Assembly: GCA_964417625.1 (NCBI GenBank)
Contig: CAYQIR010000002.1
Coordinates: forward strand, 11,227-40,957
DNA from: an uncultured Candidatus Saccharibacteria bacterium
Lineage (GTDB): Bacteria > Patescibacteriota > Minisyncoccia > Phycocordibacterales > WO2-35-19
DNA length: 29,731 nucleotides
Reading direction: 5' to 3'
Shown here piece by piece: positions 3,163-29,341 of the stretch; within the stretch, counting starts at the first letter, position 1; each line of letters begins with the position of its first letter. The position numbers were made by a program, and so were the translations under genes. Under the pieces are notes generated by a model. The model ran no database searches, had not been told where the DNA came from, and saw only the letters and a program-made list of their open reading frames with translations.

Positions 3163-4587
3163 ATGAAAAGAACTTACATAAGAGATTTGAAAGATAATGT
3201 CGGCAAAGAAGTGACCATAGCCGGGTGGGTTTCGATAGTCCGCGACCAGGGCAAGATGATATTTTTTGACTTTCGCGATATGACTGGCACGGTCCAGGGA
3301 GTGATCCTCTCCAATAAAAAAGATTTGATAGAAAAGGCCAAACCAGTCAGGACAGAATGGGTGGTAGAAGTGTCCGGCACAGTCAACCAAAGACCGGCCA
3401 AAATGGTCAACGACAAAGTTCAGAATGGCGATATTGAGCTGGAAGTAAACGGTTTTGAAATCCTAAACAAAGCGGAAACTTTGCCTTTTGATATCGCAGG
3501 CGACACTTCGGGCATAGATGAAAATACCAGATTAAAATATCGCTACCTGGACCTCCGCAGCGAGAGGATGCAGCGAAATATCAGGTTGCGCAGCGAGTTT
3601 GTGCGGCGAGTGAGAGAACATCTCTTCAGCAAATTTTTCACCGAGATAGAGACCCCGCTCCTGACCGAGTCCACCCCCGAAGGTTCACGCGACTTCGTAG
3701 TACCTTCACGCTTGAACCCTGGCAAGTTTTACGCCTTGCCCCAGTCACCCCAACAATACAAACAGCTCCTCATGACCGCCGGCTTTGAAAGATATTTCCA
3801 AATTGCTCGTGCAGTCCGCGATGAAAATCTCCGTGCCGACCGCGGCTTTGAACACACTCAGGTTGACCTAGAGATGTCGTTCGTACAAATGGAAGATGTA
3901 ATGAACACGGTAGAAGAAATGGTCACGAATGTTGTGGAAGCCATGGGCTACAAAATAAAAGAGAAGCCCTTCCCGAGAATTGCTTACAAAGATGCAATGC
4001 AAAAGTATGGTGCCGACAAGTTTGACTTGCGTACTCCCGAAGAAAAAGAGCAGGGGATTTTGGCCTATGCTTGGGTCGTCAACTTCCCATTTTTTGAAAA
4101 GACCGATCCGAAAGCCGGCACCGGTATGGAAAAGGGTAACTGGACCTTTACCCACAACCCCTTCTCAATGCCAATACCAGAACACTTGGAATGGCTCATG
4201 GAAGGCAAAAATATCGAAGACATCCTCACCACCCAATACGACCTGGTCTGCAACGGTTATGAATCTGGCGGGGGATCAATCCGCGCACACAAACCGGAAA
4301 TTTTGCGAGCCACTTACAAAGTGATTGGTTATTCGGATGAAGAAATAGAAAAAAGCGTCGGCCATATGCTTGAAGCTTTCAAATACGGCACTCCGCCCCA
4401 CGGCGGTATCGCTCTTGGTGTCGAGCGCAATATCATGAACCTGACCGGCGAAACCTTTTTGCGCGAAGTGCAATCGTTCCCGATGACCCGCGGCGGCCAA
4501 ACCGCAGTCATGAACGCGCCCAAAGAATTGACCGAAAAACAACTCAAAGAGTTGTCCCTCAAGATCGAAGAGAAAGACAAAAAATAA
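3163..4587 (+). CDS. aspS: Aspartate-tRNA ligase, short bacterial type lacking the GAD insertion domain
   Basis: OB-fold N-terminus, TPEGSRDF, ALPQSPQQYKQLLM, RDENLRADR and PPHGGIALG; the ATG at 3163 avoids overlap with trpS. Confidence 0.95.
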   Translation: MKRTYIRDLKDNVGKEVTIAGWVSIVRDQGKMIFFDFRDMTGTVQGVILSNKKDLIEKAKPVRTEWVVEVSGTVNQRPAKMVNDKVQNGDIELEVNGFEILNKAETLPFDIAGDTSGIDENTRLKYRYLDLRSERMQRNIRLRSEFVRRVREHLFSKFFTEIETPLLTESTPEGSRDFVVPSRLNPGKFYALPQSPQQYKQLLMTAGFERYFQIARAVRDENLRADRGFEHTQVDLEMSFVQMEDVMNTVEEMVTNVVEAMGYKIKEKPFPRIAYKDAMQKYGADKFDLRTPEEKEQGILAYAWVVNFPFFEKTDPKAGTGMEKGNWTFTHNPFSMPIPEHLEWLMEGKNIEDILTTQYDLVCNGYESGGGSIRAHKPEILRATYKVIGYSDEEIEKSVGHMLEAFKYGTPPHGGIALGVERNIMNLTGETFLREVQSFPMTRGGQTAVMNAPKELTEKQLKELSLKIEEKDKK

Positions 4588-5485: not shown

Positions 5486-5525
5486 CCCCATCTCCTTGAC
5501 TAAGGAGAGGGTAGGAGGTGAGGTT
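5486..5525 (+). repeat. REP-like palindrome (DUF559-associated family)
   Basis: TCTCCTT-gact-AAGGAGA hairpin followed by the GGGTAGGAGGTGAGGTT tail; matches the copies at 11822 and 24465. Confidence 0.65.
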
Positions 5526-8908: not shown

Positions 8909-9077
8909 ATACGAAAATTATGCGAAAGCTACAAAAAGGTAACGAGAATTTTTTCTTCCTTCTCCTTCGCAACCCGTCCGACTGGGTCATCCACCTGTGC
9001 CGGTACGGACAGGTCCGGGCGGAGGAGAGGGGTTGGGGTGAGGTCGAGTTTTTGCAGCTTTTCGTATTATTTCGTAT
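8909..9077. repeat. Nested inverted-repeat element between mraY and ftsW
   Basis: Imperfect ~29-bp IR at 8909-8937/9049-9077; inner 12-bp stem at 8958-8969/9020-9031 with a REP-type GGGGTTGGGGTGAGG tail; innermost ACCTGT..ACAGGT hairpin. Confidence 0.55.
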
Positions 9078-11360: not shown

Positions 11361-11396
11361 CCTAACCCCCTAAATCCCCCTTAACTTAAGGGGGAA
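11361..11396 (-). repeat. REP-like palindrome upstream of the DUF559 gene
   Basis: TCCCCCTTAA-c-TTAAGGGGGA (11375-11395) plus an AACCCCC tail in reverse orientation. Confidence 0.75.
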
Positions 11397-11450
11397 TTTA
11401 TGGAAAGCTTCGCTTGCTCTTAAATTCAAAAAAACGGTTATAATATTCGC

Positions 11451-11834
11451 ATGTATAAATTCAGTTTCAACAACACATCACTCAAAAATCGCAGAAGGAA
11501 GCTGCGAGCCAATCAAACCAATGCTGAGAAAAAATTGTGGGAATTTCTGCGAGGCAGAAGATTTCGTGGACTAAAATTTTATCGCCAGTTTAGTGTTGGA
11601 GCGTACATATTGGATTTTTACTGTTCAAAATTAAGGCTCGCCATTGAACTAGATGGAGGCCATCACAAAGAAAATGAAACGGTGCTGTACGATAAAGATA
11701 GAGAAAAAATTCTAAAGGCCTCGAATGTTCGCGTAATCAGATTTTGGAATGATGAAGTCGAAAATAACACAGAGAATGTGCTGGGAAAATTAGATGAAGA
11801 GATAAATAAGGAAGGTTTGGTTCCCCTCTCTTAA
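11451..11834 (+). CDS. DUF559 / Vsr-like PD-(D/E)XK endonuclease
   Basis: RRKLRANQTNAEKKLW, KFYRQ, ILDFYC, LAIELDGGHH, D..R...L...VIRFWN; TATAAT 6 nt upstream (leaderless). Confidence 0.9.
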   Translation: MYKFSFNNTSLKNRRRKLRANQTNAEKKLWEFLRGRRFRGLKFYRQFSVGAYILDFYCSKLRLAIELDGGHHKENETVLYDKDREKILKASNVRVIRFWNDEVENNTENVLGKLDEEINKEGLVPLS

Positions 11835-11862
11835 TTTAAGAGAGGGGATAGGGGTGAGTTAG
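11822..11862 (+). repeat. REP-like palindrome containing the DUF559 stop codon
   Basis: 13-bp IR TCCCCTCTCTTAA-t-TTAAGAGAGGGGA followed by TAGGGGTGAGTTAG. Confidence 0.8.
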
Positions 11863-11889
11863 AAAAAGGGTGCGGAGCATTCCACAAGT

Positions 11890-11924
11890 TCCCTCTTAAC
11901 TTAAGAGGGATTTAGAGAGTTAGG
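11890..11924 (+). repeat. REP-like palindrome, second copy downstream of DUF559
   Basis: 10-bp IR TCCCTCTTAA-c-TTAAGAGGGA followed by TTTAGAGAGTTAGG. Confidence 0.75.
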
Positions 11925-16144: not shown

Positions 16145-18877
16145 TTAAAATTCTTTGTAGTTTGGATCTACCGCAAAGTTGGCTAACACGGTTTCGTTGC
16201 CAACACCCTTGGTAAATGTGCAGGTTGGTTGCCTTTGATTGCCTTCAGTAGTGCAAGTAACTCCGCTCCAGCCGGTGAATATTCTATTGGAAGCGTGCGA
16301 CTCGATAAGCTGAACGGAAGTGCCGGGTATGTAATTTTCACTGCAATCAGTGCCGCAATTGATTCCCACCGGAAGGCTTGTTACCAGCCCCTGCCCTGTC
16401 CTTATAACATTCAAAGCAGAAGCAGGAGCATCCTGAATATTAATAGTCACCGTATCAAACGAATTTGGCCCAACCGGATCGCAGGCAATGGTATAGCTGG
16501 TGGATTGATATAAAGGACCGACGGTAGCGCTTCCTGAGCCATTCGGATAAGCAGCAGGGTTTGGTTTTGGCTGCGAAGTAATAGTGCAACTATCGACAGT
16601 AGCGCTTGAATATTGCCAGCTTAAAACAGAAGTATCGGTACCATATATAACACTGGTAGGATTGGCATCAATATTTACCACAGCGGGAGGCGTTGGCGTA
16701 ACCGTTGCGGAAACCGTAGGAGAATTTCCTCCGGCATTCGTGCAATATAATGTGTAAGTCGTTGCGGCGCTGATGCCGGATATCGTCTGATTTCCTCCAG
16801 CTACCGCTTTTGAACCGCTCCAGCCTCCCCCAGCAGTGCAGGAAGTAACATTTGAGCCGGAAACCGTCCAGGTCAGAGTTGAGGTTAGAGGCGAAGTGCC
16901 GGTGGTTGGATTGGCGACAAGAGTAACGGTTGGAGCCGGAGGGTTTACCACCACCGTCGCTCTTGCCGTGGCATCAGAAGTGCCGGCTTTTGAGCAAGTG
17001 ATGTCAAATATTTGGGTACTTGCCGGAATGCCGGTTCTGTCTTCAAATCCGCCTGATGGAGTCTTTGATCCGCTCCAATAGTTTGAGGCGGTGCAGGAAG
17101 TCGGGCTGCCTGTCGTGGTCCAGGTCAGCCTGGTAGTTCCCGGAGCAGTGAGCGGACCGGCTGGAGAGGCAGAAAGGGTAACGGAGATCGCGCCGACCGG
17201 CGTCACCGTTGCGGAAACCGTAGGAGAATTTCCTCCGGCATTCGTGCAATATAATGTGTAAGTCGTTGCGGCGCTGATGCCGGATATCGTCTGATTTCCT
17301 CCAGCTACCGCTTTTGAACCGCTCCAGCCTCCCCCAGCAGTGCAGGAAGTAACATTTGAGCCGGAAACCGTCCAGGTCAGAGTTGAGGTTAGAGGCGAAG
17401 TGCCGGTGGTTGGATTGGCGACAAGAGTAACGGTTGGAGCCGGAGGGTTTACCACCACCGTCGCTCTTGCCGTGGCATCAGAAGTGCCGGCTTTTGAGCA
17501 AGTGATGTCAAATATTTGGGTACTTGCCGGAATGCCGGTTCTGTCTTCAAATCCGCCTGATGGAGTCTTTGATCCGCTCCAATAGTTTGAGGCGGTGCAG
17601 GAAGTCGGGCTGCCTGTCGTGGTCCAGGTCAGCCTGGTAGTTCCCGGAGCAGTGAGCGGACCGGCTGGAGAGGCAGAGAGGGTGACGGAGATTGGACACG
17701 CAGATGAGACTGTACCAATAACTGAGCCGCTTGGAGCCGAAGAACCGGCCAGACTGGTTGCTACTACAGTGTATGAATGTGGCGTGCCAGGGGTAAGGCT
17801 AGTGTCCTGAAAAGATAAACCTGATGCATTATACACAGGCGTGCCTCCCCCATCTCTATATACTTGATAACTCGTCGCTCCGCCGGAAGCGTTCCAAGAT
17901 ATATTAAGCAAATTACTGTCGCATGACCCGGCCGAAACGCTGAGGCCGGTAGGAGTAGGAGGCGGCGGTGCTATGGTAGCACTACAAGAACTAACTCCCC
18001 ACCCATAGTCGGTATAACAGGTCCAGGACCAACCGGTACCGGTGGAAGTCAGTGAGCCTTGGGAATTGCCTATATTAAAATGAGCGGTATCGGAAACAGG
18101 CGCTCCGGTATCGCACAAGAATCGGGGGTCATATACTCCGCCACTCTGCGTATCAGGAGCTGCATAATCTTTGTTAACTGCATCACTGTGATACGGAAAA
18201 GCTTTACCATTAAAAGAACCGCAAGTGCCGTAAAAATACGCCATACATTGAGCATTGGTGCCTCCATTTATGCCCGCACATTGCCAATACCAAGGTCCAC
18301 CGCCGACAAAAGTTGACGGATAAGCTAGGCCGCTATCGCAAGCAGGAGTAGATAAAGATGAATATGAACCCAAATGATTATAGCCACAAGCTCCATTAAC
18401 CACCGTCGTATCAACAGTACAGTCATACGAACAAATTTCAGGATTTTCCGTATTTGGGTCACAGTACCCATCTCCACAAGAAGTGCCGTCTCCAGGCTGG
18501 CCGCAACATGCTGTCTGGCCATCACAAGGATCGTTAACATCATCACATACTCCGCCCGGAGGATAGATTGGTATGCAATCGCATCCTGTAGTTGAAGAAC
18601 AATTGAAAATACCGCTTCCTGATGAGTACGGGCAGAATTGGCCTGATGACGCGCAAACGGCTGATCCAGTATCACCACAGTCAATAGAACAACTTCCGTC
18701 GTTACTGTAATTGCATGTGTCGGTTCCGCAAGCTGCATCCCATGTATTACATGTCCCTGAATCAGCCACTACCACCCCTGCTGGTAAAAAATAGAGAACC
18801 AAAAACATTACAGCTAGTAGAAGCAATAAAGTTAATATTCTGGATTTTGGTAAAAATAAGTTAGTAACTATTGACAT
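16145..18877 (-). CDS. 910-aa Cys-rich surface/adhesin-like protein (FN3, Ig-like repeats, InlB-B-repeat-like C-terminus)
   Basis: N-terminal TM/signal; 18 Cys in ~115 aa including CGDGYC; NGACG repeat; FN3-like ISWN..ATSYQVYR; duplicated Ig-like pairs; GQGLVTS.P.GINCG.DC..F.GWSG. Confidence 0.85.
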   Translation of the reverse strand: MSIVTNLFLPKSRILTLLLLLAVMFLVLYFLPAGVVVADSGTCNTWDAACGTDTCNYSNDGSCSIDCGDTGSAVCASSGQFCPYSSGSGIFNCSSTTGCDCIPIYPPGGVCDDVNDPCDGQTACCGQPGDGTSCGDGYCDPNTENPEICSYDCTVDTTVVNGACGYNHLGSYSSLSTPACDSGLAYPSTFVGGGPWYWQCAGINGGTNAQCMAYFYGTCGSFNGKAFPYHSDAVNKDYAAPDTQSGGVYDPRFLCDTGAPVSDTAHFNIGNSQGSLTSTGTGWSWTCYTDYGWGVSSCSATIAPPPPTPTGLSVSAGSCDSNLLNISWNASGGATSYQVYRDGGGTPVYNASGLSFQDTSLTPGTPHSYTVVATSLAGSSAPSGSVIGTVSSACPISVTLSASPAGPLTAPGTTRLTWTTTGSPTSCTASNYWSGSKTPSGGFEDRTGIPASTQIFDITCSKAGTSDATARATVVVNPPAPTVTLVANPTTGTSPLTSTLTWTVSGSNVTSCTAGGGWSGSKAVAGGNQTISGISAATTYTLYCTNAGGNSPTVSATVTPVGAISVTLSASPAGPLTAPGTTRLTWTTTGSPTSCTASNYWSGSKTPSGGFEDRTGIPASTQIFDITCSKAGTSDATARATVVVNPPAPTVTLVANPTTGTSPLTSTLTWTVSGSNVTSCTAGGGWSGSKAVAGGNQTISGISAATTYTLYCTNAGGNSPTVSATVTPTPPAVVNIDANPTSVIYGTDTSVLSWQYSSATVDSCTITSQPKPNPAAYPNGSGSATVGPLYQSTSYTIACDPVGPNSFDTVTINIQDAPASALNVIRTGQGLVTSLPVGINCGTDCSENYIPGTSVQLIESHASNRIFTGWSGVTCTTEGNQRQPTCTFTKGVGNETVLANFAVDPNYKEF
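16695..17692. repeat. 504-bp in-frame tandem duplication
   Basis: 16701-17173 reads identical to 17205-17677 by eye; a few synonymous differences occur only at the unit edges. Confidence 0.95.
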
Positions 18878-23065: not shown

Positions 23066-23560
23066 CTATTTCAACCCTTTGCAATTTGAAGCAGGAGTGT
23101 AGCCGGCGGCGCGAGCTTCTTCAATGGAATTAAAAGTGATTTTATTTTTTTCGGAAATTTGTTTGGCGCCAGCGCACCAAGGGTAATGATATTTGGTGCC
23201 ATTTTTTGAACCAACAACCGCACTATTATTCAAACCAGATTGCTCGGAGCCCATGTCTATATTTGCCCCCTTCACTTCTCCTATATTGTTCTTTTCGGTC
23301 TCCCCCTTAATGTAAGGGGGATTAAGGGGGTTATTAGTATCAGGATTTTGCGAAACAATCCGCACCGGCTCCCTCTCCCCGGCTATTTTAGAAATCCGGC
23401 CCAAACAAAAAGCAATAATAGCAACCAAAATGATAACTGCTGGCACGAAATACCGACCAGTCAAAAAGGCCTCCATTTTGGCCCGAAGACCCCCGCCTTT
23501 TGAAGAATCCAAATCTTCTAGGTCCACATATTCCTCTATATTATGTTGATCTTCTTGCAT
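23066..23560 (-). CDS. Membrane-anchored protein with an Ada-type metal-binding domain
   Basis: TM helix followed by GSKNGTKYHYPWC...F.S.EEA.AAGY.PA.NC. Confidence 0.8.
   Translation of the reverse strand: MQEDQHNIEEYVDLEDLDSSKGGGLRAKMEAFLTGRYFVPAVIILVAIIAFCLGRISKIAGEREPVRIVSQNPDTNNPLNPPYIKGETEKNNIGEVKGANIDMGSEQSGLNNSAVVGSKNGTKYHYPWCAGAKQISEKNKITFNSIEEARAAGYTPASNCKGLK
23301..23333 (+). repeat. REP-like palindrome inside the Ada-like CDS
   Basis: TCCCCCTTA-atg-TAAGGGGGA plus TTAAGGGGGTTA; closely matches the reverse complement of 11364-11395 and encodes NPLNPPYIKGE. Confidence 0.75.
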
Positions 23561-24464: not shown

Positions 24465-24503
24465 CCCCTATCTTATATTTAAGAGAGGGGTTGGGGTGAG
24501 TTA
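24465..24503 (+). repeat. REP-like palindrome
   Basis: CCCCTATCTTA-tatt-TAAGAGAGGGG plus TTGGGGTGAGTTA; close to the copy at 11822. Confidence 0.75.
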
Positions 24504-26692: not shown

Positions 26693-28078
26693 ATGGAAAT
26701 AAAATTGCATAACACCCTAAGCGGCAAGAAAGAAGTTTTTAAACCCATCAACGAAAAAGAAGCATTGATGTACAACTGCGGGCCGACCGCTTATGGCGAG
26801 CAGCATATTGGGAATCTTAGTATGTTCGTCTTTACCGATATCCTCCGCCGCACTCTGGAATATGGCGGCTACAAAGTAAAGCAAGTGATAAACATCACCG
26901 ACTTCGGCCACCTCTCCGGCGACAATGAAGGCCGGGCTGACGAAGGCGAGGACCGGATGACTAAGGGCCTCCGGCGCGAAAAAATGGCGCTTACCATGTC
27001 CAACATGCGGGTGCTCGCAGAGAAGTATGCCAATATATTTTTTGAGTCGCTTAAAACTCTCAACGTCAATATCGAAAAAACCCGCTTCCCTTTTGCTTCG
27101 GATTATATTCCGGACCAAATCAAAATGATTCAAACGCTCCAAGAAAAAGGCTTCACTTATAATGGAGAAAACGGCGTATATTTTGATACGAATAAATTTC
27201 CGGACTATGGGGGGCTAGGGCAAATCAATCTCGCCGGGCTCTCGGAGGGGGCGCGGGTAGAAAAAAGCGAGAAGAAAAGCCCGACCGACTTTATCCTCTG
27301 GAAAAAAGATAAAAAAATAGGCTGGGAATCGCCATGGGGCCTCGGCTTCCCGGGTTGGCACATTGAATGTTCGGCTATGATTTTCAAACTGCTTGGCGAA
27401 CAGATAGATATCCACACCGGCGGCATCGAACACATCCCCGTTCACCACAACAACGAAATTGCTCAGGCTGAATCGGCGAGCGGCAAAAAACCGTTTGTGA
27501 AGTTTTGGCTTCATCGGGCTCATCTGAAAATTGACGACAGCAAAATTTCCAAATCCGAAGGCACCGCCGTTTACCTCGGCGACTTCAAGCTCCGCCACAT
27601 CCACCCCCTCTCTTTCCGCTTCTGGCTCCTTACCGCCCACTACAAAACGGGAGCCAACTTCACTTGGGAAGGAGTCCGGGGCGCCCAAACCGCTTTTGAG
27701 AAAATTTTGAATGCTTACCTTGATATGCCAAAGTCAGACAAAAGCGACAAAGAAGTAATGGAAAAATTTGAAAAAGCGATCGTTGATGACCTGAATACTC
27801 CGGTCGCCATCGCCATCATGCAAGAAGCCAGGTCAAAAAAAGTTATAGAAAAAATGGACAAAGTGCTGGGCCTCAATATTGAAAAGCTGGCCAAGGAAAT
27901 AGAGACGAATATTCCCGATGAAATCGCAGAATTGAAGTCAGAAAGAGACAGCGCCAGGAGCGCCAAAAACTGCGAGCACAGCGACGCCTTGCGCAAAGAG
28001 ATTGAAAAAGACAATTTCATCTTGGAAAACAAAAATGGCAAAAGTGTCATTAGAAAAAAATTGTTTTCTTTGATTTAA
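26693..28078 (+). CDS. cysS: Cysteine-tRNA ligase
   Basis: YNCGPT, HIGN, GFPGWHIECS, DIHTGG, HHNNE and KISKS. Confidence 0.97.
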   Translation: MEIKLHNTLSGKKEVFKPINEKEALMYNCGPTAYGEQHIGNLSMFVFTDILRRTLEYGGYKVKQVINITDFGHLSGDNEGRADEGEDRMTKGLRREKMALTMSNMRVLAEKYANIFFESLKTLNVNIEKTRFPFASDYIPDQIKMIQTLQEKGFTYNGENGVYFDTNKFPDYGGLGQINLAGLSEGARVEKSEKKSPTDFILWKKDKKIGWESPWGLGFPGWHIECSAMIFKLLGEQIDIHTGGIEHIPVHHNNEIAQAESASGKKPFVKFWLHRAHLKIDDSKISKSEGTAVYLGDFKLRHIHPLSFRFWLLTAHYKTGANFTWEGVRGAQTAFEKILNAYLDMPKSDKSDKEVMEKFEKAIVDDLNTPVAIAIMQEARSKKVIEKMDKVLGLNIEKLAKEIETNIPDEIAELKSERDSARSAKNCEHSDALRKEIEKDNFILENKNGKSVIRKKLFSLI

Positions 28079-28094
28079 TGTTTGTTTTTTATTT

Positions 28095-28123
28095 CTCTCC
28101 CCTAGTTGTGCGATCGCACAACT
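28095..28123. repeat. 29-bp direct repeat with a perfect 20-bp palindrome (3' end of the PaaX-like gene)
   Basis: CTCTCCCCT-AGTTGTGCGATCGCACAACT; contains the gene's stop codon. Confidence 0.9.
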
Positions 28124-28719
28124 GTGGTAGGTTCCGTATAAGGAAAGTTGATTTTAAGCTTAAAATCTGGCTCTACCGAACGGGCTACGATATAACGCAC
28201 ATATTTTTTGATCTCATACAATTCGGCAATCTTAAACATTTGTTCTTTGCACTCGTGGGGATACACAAAAACAGATTTTTCAAAATTATACATCCCGGCA
28301 AAATTAAGAGCTCTGTTAAAACGCTGCCTGTTTATTTTTAGTTTCTCGGGTATATCAAAAGTTACAATTCTCCAAAAACCATCCCATTTAATTCCTAAAG
28401 GTAATTTGATTGATTTAACTTTAAGGCCGGCAAAATAAATTCTGCCTTCTTTTGTTAATTTCAATTTCCTTTTGCCATTTTTCATCCAAAAGCGTATAAA
28501 TTTTCTTTTTTCAAGTGAGTTGAGTATACGTTCTGTTCTGTACTTATTTTTCCAATCCGGAACCCATCCCAGCAGTTTGATAATATGTCCAGCCGCATTC
28601 GGCGCAGCAACTCCTAAAAATAAAATGGTTCCTAGTTTACCAATCGCCTCTAAAATTTCCAAAGTTCTTTCGTCTCTGGCAAATTTTTTAACTTTTTGAA
28701 TTTTTTCTTTTATCTCCAC
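28102..28719 (-). CDS. PaaX-like protein: winged-HTH plus Cas2/VapD-like domain
   Basis: L..LEKRKFI...KLKLTKEG (wing) followed by WDGFWRIVTFDIPE...R..F.R.L...G...EKSVFV.P; GTG start 8 nt after TATAAT. Confidence 0.8.
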   Translation of the reverse strand: MEIKEKIQKVKKFARDERTLEILEAIGKLGTILFLGVAAPNAAGHIIKLLGWVPDWKNKYRTERILNSLEKRKFIRFWMKNGKRKLKLTKEGRIYFAGLKVKSIKLPLGIKWDGFWRIVTFDIPEKLKINRQRFNRALNFAGMYNFEKSVFVYPHECKEQMFKIAELYEIKKYVRYIVARSVEPDFKLKINFPYTEPTTVVRSHN

Positions 28720-28738
28720 AACTGTTCATTATATCCTA

Positions 28739-28767
28739 CTCTCCCCTAGTTGCGCGATCGCACAACT
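28739..28767. repeat. 29-bp direct repeat, second copy (promoter side of the PaaX-like gene)
   Basis: CTCTCCCCT-AGTTGCGCGATCGCACAACT; 28/29 identical to 28095-28123. Confidence 0.9.
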
Positions 28768-28820
28768 AAGGGATAATGAGAATTGATATAAATTTATGAT
28801 AGAATTTAAAAAATAAAAAT

Positions 28821-28894
28821 GCGAGATTAGTTTAGTGGCAAAATGGGTGCTTCCCAAGCATCAGACGCGAGTTCGATTCTCGCATCTCGCACCA
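28821..28894 (+). tRNA. tRNA-Gly (anticodon CCC)
   Basis: Cloverleaf: acceptor GCGAGAT/ATCTCGC, anticodon arm GGTGC-TTCCCAA-GCATC, T arm GCGAG-TTCGATT-CTCGC, encoded CCA. Confidence 0.95.
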
Positions 28895-29068
28895 CGTAAA
28901 AACTCTCGAGCAGGATTTAAAGTATCTCTCGAGTTCACGTGGCGCAGCCACAAAAACAAAAGCAAAAATGCTCTATAAATCTGCGAGATGAGTTTTGAGT
29001 GACTCGTGAGACGTGGTTTGTAATAAATATGATAATATTTATTACAAGCTTTACGTCTTTTACGAGCA

Positions 29069-29341
29069 ATGCACTACGTTGTCTACATTTTAGAAGATCA
29101 AATAGACAAAACTTGGTATATTGGTTTTACTCATGATTTAAAGCAAAGATTGAAAGACCATAAATCTGGACATAGCCCTTATACAAGCAAGAAAAAAGAT
29201 TTGAAACTTATTTATGCAGAAATGTATTTGAGTAAAGCGGATGCTTTGGGTAGAGAAAAATTTTTGAAAAGTGGGTCTGGGCATAGATTTATAAAGAAGC
29301 AGTTGGCAAATTATTTTGATCTAAGCAAATTAGACCGCTAG
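29069..29341 (+). CDS. Stand-alone GIY-YIG nuclease-family protein
   Basis: YVVYIL, WYIGFT.DL..RL..H, EMYLSK.DA..RE.FLKSG.G. Confidence 0.9.
   Translation: MHYVVYILEDQIDKTWYIGFTHDLKQRLKDHKSGHSPYTSKKKDLKLIYAEMYLSKADALGREKFLKSGSGHRFIKKQLANYFDLSKLDR

Follow-up and report, generated by a model that had tools for sequence, protein, structure and literature searches.

In a 29,731-nucleotide stretch of contig CAYQIR010000002.1 (assembly GCA_964417625.1) from an uncultured Candidatus Saccharibacteria bacterium, hereafter the window, a gene for a 205-residue PaaX-like mini-protein is bracketed by two copies of one palindrome, and this association with flanking palindromes is a family-wide trait. The best explanation, which we put forward with evenly balanced confidence, is a self-contained autoregulatory module whose protein is predicted to recognise both palindromes by their conserved centre and stem geometry. 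The evidence comprises the anatomy of the unit, its recurrence across the family, the covariation of the palindrome arms, a fixed chromosomal site, and presence or absence of the gene at that site, with a solo palindrome in one gene-less relative. From these we infer binding, repression, looping and a role for the Cas2-like pocket of the protein.

The gene (28102–28719, minus strand, GTG start) is framed by a 29-bp direct repeat, CTCTCCCCTAGTTG[T/C]GCGATCGCACAACT, with a downstream (3′) copy at 28095–28123 and an upstream (5′) copy at 28739–28767, neither assigned to a strand, that agree in 28 of 29 positions; a weaker similarity reaches 45 nt at 82% (28079–28123 against 28723–28767, repeat family D4). 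Each copy holds the 20-bp palindrome AGTTGTGCGATCGCACAACT, which is perfect in the 3′ copy (28104–28123, centre CGATCG) and carries one mismatch in the 5′ copy (28748–28767; repeats D4 and I2). At up to three mismatches the window has no match beyond these two, against none expected from shuffled sequences. Folded as single-stranded DNA, the 3′ copy forms a hairpin with z = −4.5 against shuffled controls, and the 5′ copy reaches z = −4.4 on the same comparison; the single mismatch of the latter is a T·G on the gene strand, and its hairpin can be extended to about 28742–28773. Past the 5′ copy, the gene strand reads ...GGGGAGAGTAGGA-TATAAT-GAACAGTT-GTG, with the −10 element TATAAT at 28728–28733 (minus strand), 8 nt before the start at 28719. 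The centre of the 5′ palindrome thus lies 24 nt upstream of the −10 element and over the expected −35 region, and a promoter scan of the gene strand found no −35 consensus. As TATAAT is located only 8 nt ahead of the start codon, the sequence suggests a leaderless mRNA, and the upstream copy, being upstream of the −10 element, would lie outside the gene's own transcript. At the other end, the 3′ copy covers the last codons and the stop, so that the reading frame translates through the palindrome and ends in VVRSHN. This tail was not found in homologues and the palindrome follows the stop in other loci; translation of the repeat is thus incidental. A half-site, ACAGTTGTG, overlaps the GTG start (28717–28725, minus strand) and recurs in the window only at 28117–28125, with 0.11 occurrences expected. 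An earlier, sequence-only reading of this DNA had described the repeats and palindrome, the 5′ copy at the −35 position and the translated 3′ copy, and was right in each of these respects. Its half-site is likewise present, but no equivalent was seen in the start-codon regions of orthologues, which makes this a window-specific feature.

Homologous loci were fetched (n = 81), 57 of them distinct and with enough flanking sequence, or 71 when short-flank loci are included. The proteins of the 57 loci, all from Patescibacteria, are 30–80% identical to that of the window. At 39 of the 57 loci a repeat of 12 nt or more is present, without mismatch, in both flanks, as compared to 5 of 156 other open reading frames (ORFs) in the same loci; a repeat of at least 11 nt is shared at 53 of 71 loci with the short-flank ones included. 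The shared repeats are often 20–45 nt long, and several loci without one still carry palindromes with the same centre and diverged arms. Palindromes centred on C-N-A-T-N-G with at least eight matched pairs number 74 in the flanks of the 71 loci, whereas the other 282 kb contain only 10, all weak and unrelated to the sequence of their own locus; the enrichment in the flanks is approximately 80-fold. CGATCG is the most frequent centre (34), followed by CTATAG (19), CTATCG (10), CGATAG (4), CAATTG (3) and CCATGG (3), and the centre is kept across proteins as low as 30% identical. Median arm length is 16–17 nt and the maximum 27 nt. The orthologue L001 (79% identical) carries CTAGTTGACCGATCGGTCAACTAG on both sides of its gene in a window-like layout; its inner triplets differ from those of the window, having changed symmetrically and in both copies. 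The repeats are direct in orientation, and copies remain identical despite decayed symmetry (29/29 positions in L004, 41/41 in L061 and 48/49 in L078). The two copies of one gene share their inner arms in most loci, and in homologues the centre of the 3′ copy lies anywhere between about 12 nt ahead of the stop and about 90 nt beyond it. Each locus has one family gene, and a 20.6-kb stretch of a related genome contains no more than two copies of the palindrome. The sequence-only reading had proposed to inspect the flanks of PaaX-like genes in Candidate Phyla Radiation (CPR) genomes for gene-specific palindromic direct repeats; such repeats indeed flank most members. As a separate observation, locus L067 contains a second long CGATAG-centred palindrome, ACATTTACATCTTTACGCGA–TAGCGTATAGATGTCAATAT, at about 2385–2425, roughly 1 kb downstream of its family gene; it adjoins the contig end and might flank another unit cut off there.

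A generic origin of the hairpins, be it coincidence, ordinary terminators or dispersed repetitive extragenic palindromic (REP)-like repeats, is essentially excluded by these data, and we give it a negligible likelihood. It is true that the window holds other dispersed hairpin repeats (families D3, D9 and D10), one pair of them around a DUF559 gene at 11451–11834. However, the flanking pair recurs in most of the 71 independent loci with locus-specific sequence at each, at the enrichment given above, and the window contains two copies against none expected, without T-runs. A dispersed REP-like repeat was rejected on the grounds that only two copies exist and the controls were negative. Canonical intrinsic terminators were rejected as well, given the few T-runs and a terminator scan that predicted none at the palindromes.

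The position of the palindrome relative to the promoter was then compared across loci. Orthologues share the order palindrome, 7–10 nt, TATAAT, 6–8 nt, start codon. A −10-like hexamer ending 4–10 nt before the start is found in 26 of 70 family genes versus 19 of 156 controls, in keeping with leaderless mRNAs in the family too. The 5′ copy is in the promoter region throughout; its distance from palindrome centre to −10 element could be determined for 16 loci and ranges from −2 to 74 nt, mostly 16–43. Relative to the start codon, most loci have the 5′ centre at about −10 to −72, and the L057 copy is further upstream; in a few loci the palindrome overlaps the −10 element or the start itself (centre −10 to −18). 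This variable placement would fit a repressor better than an activator. Upstream neighbours are co-directional in 36 of 55 cases. Downstream neighbours run in the same direction as the gene in 29 loci and converge with it in 36, on which account the 3′ copy was rejected as an operator of the next gene.

In the autoregulatory module as we envisage it, the protein would bind the upstream copy over the −35 region of its −10-only promoter and shut off its own transcription. The downstream copy would form the 3′ boundary of the unit and might serve either as a second operator, with a loop of about 650 bp, or as a roadblock against the convergent cysS transcript; it is probably also a 3′ RNA hairpin. 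Recognition would proceed via the centre V-C-K-A-T-M-G-B and the stem geometry, leaving the arms free as long as they are complementary. The invariant pocket of the Cas2-like domain may bind an effector, by analogy to PaaX, whose effector is phenylacetyl-CoA, or may have retained catalysis. The module would be inherited vertically at a fixed site and lost via recombination between its own repeats. This proposal is supported by the family-specific association, the restriction to two palindrome copies, the variable placement in the promoter region, the conserved centre, and the conserved synteny and wobble bias described below. In addition, a candidate palindromic site overlaps the gene's own promoter, as in autoregulated factors, and the protein is built as a PaaX-type transcription factor with a variable winged helix and an invariant Cas2-like domain. 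The sequence-only reading had considered an autoregulator that binds both ends; the family-wide flanking pattern fits this option. Autoregulated repressors of the DeoR, GalR and LacI type are known to use two-sided operators and DNA looping, and the unit resembles them in having a promoter-overlapping operator candidate and a second identical site a few hundred bp away. Unlike in these systems, the second site comes after the regulator gene itself on its 3′ side, a target gene under its control is not visible, and the sites are 30–50-bp perfect palindromes with compensatory changes in the arms.

How the arms evolve distinguishes what may be read as sequence from what may be read as structure. 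Arm positions 4–17 are 80–95% complementary, use all four pair types and contain just 0.1–0.5 bits of sequence information; controls in which the pairing partner was shifted by one or two positions gave 0.1–0.5, and complementarity drops to background beyond about 20 nt. Between the two copies at 26 loci, 354 pairs are identical and 31 show a single change; double changes are compensatory in 32 cases and disruptive in 6. These counts are partly ascertainment-biased in that arms were defined by complementarity. In L037, L038 and L068 the entire outer arms differ between the copies, and each copy is still a perfect palindrome. Moreover, a sub-family with a near-identical recognition helix (..LRRAIRNLYQSKLI..) combines the same centre with unrelated arms. 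As the arms covary and unrelated arms accompany nearly the same helix, the centre appears to be read as sequence and the arms to be constrained mainly as structure, or else to be recognised by regions of the protein that vary more. A mutual-information scan between protein and palindrome placed its top columns over the whole protein, a result confounded by phylogeny.

A further asymmetry concerns wobble pairs. On the sense strand, G·T mismatches outnumber A·C mismatches 18 to 6 in downstream copies, as compared to 16 versus 16 in upstream copies. Because the excess is confined to the downstream side, it suggests, without proving, that the 3′ copy doubles as an RNA hairpin; a known RNA family was rejected, the Rfam matches being to tRNA only. 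One could go further and assume an RNA-level module, with the hairpins serving 3′-end formation or stabilisation and the processing of read-through transcripts, and with the Cas2/VapD-like domain binding or cleaving them to set the level of its own mRNA. We consider this distinctly improbable. The G·U-compatible bias of the downstream copies and the compensatory stem changes would be accounted for, and the share of co-directional upstream neighbours would often place the upstream hairpin in a read-through transcript. Relatives of Cas2 and VapD are moreover reported to be endoribonucleases, according to PMC3351183 and the reference list of PMC11980593. Conversely, the upstream copy in the orthologue group precedes the −10 element and adjoins a divergent tRNA gene, which makes sense transcription unlikely, and upstream copies show no wobble bias; there is neither a T-tract nor a known RNA family, and a winged helix usually reads DNA.

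The protein itself combines features of PaaX and Cas2. It matches the Pfam model PaaX_M (PF20803, the "central Cas2-like domain" of PaaX) with 1.3e-18 and 67 bits against a cut-off of 24. An AlphaFold2 model with a predicted local distance difference test (pLDDT) score of 76 places a winged helix at residues ~20–90 (helices to ~71, wing 75–88) and a Cas2-like ferredoxin domain at ~111–184; the best Foldseek matches are E. coli PaaX (8a39) at the top, Rv0674 (3kfw) and many Cas2 proteins. The combination of a PaaX-type winged helix and a Cas2-like fold noted in the sequence-only reading is in line with all three results. Still, the PaaX equivalog TIGR02277 scores 18.4 bits where 264.55 are required, the PaaX_C domain is lacking as the protein stops about 20 residues past the middle domain, and no paa gene was identified among ten large ORFs of the window scanned against Pfam. 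The fold is PaaX-like, yet by cut-off, C-terminal domain and genomic context the protein is not a member of PaaX. Cas2 membership fails in a comparable manner: TIGR01573 gives 14.2 bits against 24.5, the PADLOC Cas2 model matches with E = 0.0017 over merely 38 residues, the window has no CRISPR array, and neither cas1 nor another cas gene was found among its scanned ORFs or in a 20-kb related locus. The lack of both paa genes and a CRISPR array had been read correctly from the sequence.

By the search threshold used (E ≤ 1e-10), the family comprises 3060 clusters at 50% identity; the members listed are nearly all about 170–230 amino acids long, and source names place them in Patescibacteria (Paceibacterota, Zambryskibacteria, Sungbacteria). 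The 71 sequences share the motif WD..WR...FD.PE.....R...KS.F..P..C in the Cas2-like domain. Strictly conserved are W112, D113, W116, R117, F121, D122, P124, E125, R131, S149, F151, P154 and C157, almost all in this domain, and the winged helix is variable. D122, R131 and S149 have their counterparts in three motifs of Cas2 and VapD, namely [FY]DI, R and SVF. In the structure model, the ferredoxin fold carries an Asp at the end of strand 1, as in Cas2, and this residue, D122, is invariant in the 71 sequences.

PaaX binds palindromic operators under the control of a ligand pocket. The mini-protein resembles it in the succession of winged helix and Cas2-like PaaX_M and in a WDG.W motif that opens the middle domain, and by analogy to the E. 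coli protein (PDB 8a39; TIGR02277) it may bind palindromic sites under ligand control. It differs in its length of 205 versus about 300 residues, in lacking PaaX_C and nearby paa genes, and in sites that bracket its own gene as long, hairpin-capable palindromes. It also keeps the aspartate of the FDIPE segment, a Cas2-type residue that we take to be missing from E. coli PaaX. With the Cas2 and VapD nucleases it shares the ferredoxin fold, the [FY]DI...R...SVF motifs and weak Cas2 profile matches, and a gene between direct palindromic repeats bears a superficial resemblance to a repeat–spacer–repeat unit. In contrast to these nucleases, the mini-protein joins the domain to a winged helix, and the "spacer" is the gene itself. 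An adjacent antitoxin partner, which a VapD-like type II toxin–antitoxin system would have, is lacking.

The unit is monocistronic and occupies the interval between cysS (26693–28078, plus strand), which is convergent with it and forms the left boundary of a conserved site, and tRNA-Gly(ccc) (28821–28894, plus strand), which is divergent from it and forms the right boundary; the 3′ repeat copy begins 17 nt past the cysS stop. The neighbouring genes are cysS, corA, an S41 protease gene, lepA and murJ. Sequence skew has no inflection at the site, and a replication origin or terminus was rejected for this reason. The order S41 protease–CorA–CysS–gene–tRNA-Gly(ccc), including the orientation of the gene, is conserved at 13 orthologous loci, whose CysS is 47–69% and whose gene product is 47–80% identical to the window's. 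Synteny kept at such CysS divergence points to a resident gene under purifying selection. A tblastn search of phage and plasmid collections returned no match and IMG/VR a single one in 2.9 million viral contigs, so that a phage or plasmid origin was rejected.

Gene-free alleles of this site were sought on ten contigs of CysS relatives, with absence confirmed by a hidden Markov model of the family. The gene is present in L088 and L091, from the lineage of L011, and absent in the eight others (L086, L087, L089, L090, L092, L093, L095 and L096); it is therefore dispensable. In L095 and L086 the tRNA-Gly gene follows cysS after 11–20 nt. L089 has no gene but a lone 34-bp palindrome, ACCACTCAAGCGCGCGA–TCGCGCGCTTGGGTGGT, with centre CGATCG, which follows the stop of cysS and precedes a tRNA-Gly 2 nt different from the window's; the seven other gene-less relatives are without a palindrome. 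Given the low background rate of such palindromes, that of L089 is very unlikely to have arisen by chance. The empty allele with one palindrome between cysS and tRNA-Gly that the sequence-only reading had called for thus exists, and it corresponds to what deletion or excision between both repeats would leave. Recombination or deletion between the repeats has apparently happened, and of the excision that had been proposed the single-palindrome scar stands; dedicated excision and ordinary repeat-mediated deletion would look alike.

The closest relatives on both flanks (L089, L090 and L095; CysS 66–70% identical, same tRNA variant) all lack the gene, L004 has the window's tRNA variant together with the gene, and the window's protein nests among proteins of genomes in which CysS is about 50% identical. 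Distances of CysS, CorA and the gene are poorly correlated (Spearman 0.16 for CorA versus CysS) and the tRNA-Gly variants are discordant too. The region is a mosaic, as CorA, CysS and tRNA-Gly variants disagree with each other, and a horizontal transfer of the cassette by itself would not stand out against this background. In L053 (35% identical) the gene adjoins cysS in the opposite orientation and is still bracketed by palindromes, a single case that would be consistent with one ancient inversion.

Some further observations were made at this site. Among L001–L011 and L086–L096, two deeply divergent CysS lineages occupy one syntenic slot, with about 50% or 63–73% identity to the window's CysS; the distances of CorA and the S41 protease are similar in the two CysS sets, and the two tRNA-Gly(ccc) variants are distributed independently of CysS type. 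The cysS–tRNA-Gly interval is a hot spot of recombination and rearrangement, where tRNAs are found inverted and genes, for example Gmad2, inserted. In L004, a duplicate of a 59-residue cysS fragment (3674–3850) lies between the PaaX_M gene and full-length cysS, beside an inserted 129-residue ORF. Just downstream of tRNA-Gly(ccc) in the window, a GIY-YIG nuclease gene of 90 codons (29069–29341, plus strand) is preceded by an AT-rich inverted repeat at about 29003–29066, and in L087 (4900–5560) a GIY-YIG gene is next to a tRNA-Gly in inverted orientation, and partial copies of the tRNA occur to either side. A homing-type element aimed at this tRNA region is suggested by these findings.

The presence/absence pattern brings up the main alternative, a hairpin-ended cassette, excisable or insertable or by now a domesticated relic, with the palindromes as element ends. 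The winged helix would deliver the Cas2-fold domain to the C-N-A-T-N-G apex, where it would nick or cleave; excision would leave one palindrome, and insertion at a palindromic site would duplicate that site. We regard this explanation as unlikely, if worth serious consideration. A conserved apex on compensating stems is known from hairpin sites at which nicking or recombination takes place, among them rolling-circle origins, the ends of IS200/IS605 and attC, and here, too, a fixed apex is combined with free, compensating stems. The identity of direct repeats whose symmetry has decayed (L004, L061, L078) is expected if strand exchange needs matching sites. The Cas2/VapD-type D, R and S are invariant, one site is found both with and without the gene, the solo palindrome of L089 lies exactly where excision would leave one, the L053 gene is inverted with respect to cysS and is between palindromes still, and the unit is self-contained with no further sites nearby. 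On the other side, site and orientation are fixed at 13 orthologous loci across deep divergence, near-identical copies were not seen in different contexts, nor a second copy at any locus, and the family is nearly absent from phage, plasmid and viral collections. A recombinase, HUH or Cas1 partner is not found adjacent to the gene, ordinary deletion between 30–45-bp direct repeats would equally yield a solo palindrome, and the discordance among neighbouring genes is general rather than cassette-specific. The wider proposition that such genes form an unrecognised class of single-gene, hairpin-bounded units in Patescibacteria, cassettes or relics in which the Cas2-fold domain nicks, resolves or recombines the flanking palindromes, is in our estimate quite unlikely. 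Fixed site, single copy, two palindromes and near-absence from phage, plasmid and viral collections argue against current mobility in this lineage; the strong form of the "minimal mobile element" suggested from sequence is at odds with the same facts.

Among known hairpin-bounded elements, IS200/IS605, REP/RAYT and attC cassettes likewise feature a small gene between direct hairpin repeats with a conserved tip and variable stems, as well as presence and absence of the unit. Unlike IS200/IS605 and REP/RAYT, the protein has no HUH/Y1 domain (PaaX_M is its only Pfam match and an invariant His-hydrophobic-His is lacking), and with two copies in 20–30 kb the palindrome is not dispersed, at a site that stays fixed across deep divergence. 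An integron cassette is a promoterless ORF with one attC beside an integrase and attI, whereas the unit has its own internal TATAAT and two repeat copies, with no integrase nearby.

Several findings weigh against the autoregulatory module and keep our confidence in it at an even balance. The arms, at up to 27 nt, far exceed the footprint of a winged-helix dimer. Outer arms that differ and stay self-complementary, as in L037, L062 and L068, and unrelated arms next to nearly the same recognition helix, are nothing that a duplex operator needs. A T-run of at least four follows 17–21% of the copies, equally upstream and downstream, so that termination at the 3′ copy would not be canonical. The invariance of D122, R131 and S149 suggests a catalytic role, which an autoregulator would leave unused. 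A regulator whose only sites flank its own gene would have no visible host function, and absence from eight of ten sampled related lineages is more typical of selfish or accessory modules. It is these overlong arms, the Cas2-type residues, the self-only target and the patchy distribution, in combination with binding that is predicted, that limit the strength of the proposal.

The bracketing pattern seems to be previously undescribed: in the literature searched, nothing connected PaaX-like proteins of Patescibacteria to flanking palindromes, nor did any paper bring PaaX together with Patescibacteria, the CPR, Cas2-like proteins or palindromes. Patescibacteria have tiny genomes and few recognisable regulators. 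A family of about 3000 clusters with a clean, computable signature, i.e. a gene with its own two sites, lends itself to matching an uncharacterised family with its DNA target in unculturable organisms. Compensatory arms around a fixed centre of 6–8 bp also indicate selection on hairpin or cruciform geometry at a promoter, a rare situation. If the Cas2-fold domain does act on the repeats, the Cas2 fold would be tied to palindromic repeats independently of CRISPR, in a new minimal element. If it does not, the unit would still represent a new architecture of autoregulation, and one that accounts for easy loss of the gene, prone to it because it is flanked by direct repeats.

Elsewhere in the window, a second small nuclease-like gene is located between hairpin repeats. 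The DUF559/REase-like gene mentioned above (Pfam 3.4e-35; region 11363–11913), between murG and gltX, is bracketed by direct hairpin copies, TCCCCCTTAACTTAAGGGGGA at 11375–11395 and TCCCTCTTAACTTAAGAGGGA at 11890–11910, with a third copy inverted at 23301–23333. A second hairpin-plus-tail repeat, CCCCTCTCTTAATTTAAGAGAGGGG..GGGGTGAGTTA, occurs at 11823–11861 and 24465–24503, and further hairpin-repeat copies at 9025–9042 and 5505–5522; the genome thus contains dispersed intergenic hairpin families. Lastly, an exact 300-nt direct repeat (16695–16994 and 17199–17498, 504 nt apart) lies within a 910-residue ORF without Pfam match (16145–18877, minus strand) and reflects a very recent duplication within the ORF or else an artefact of assembly.

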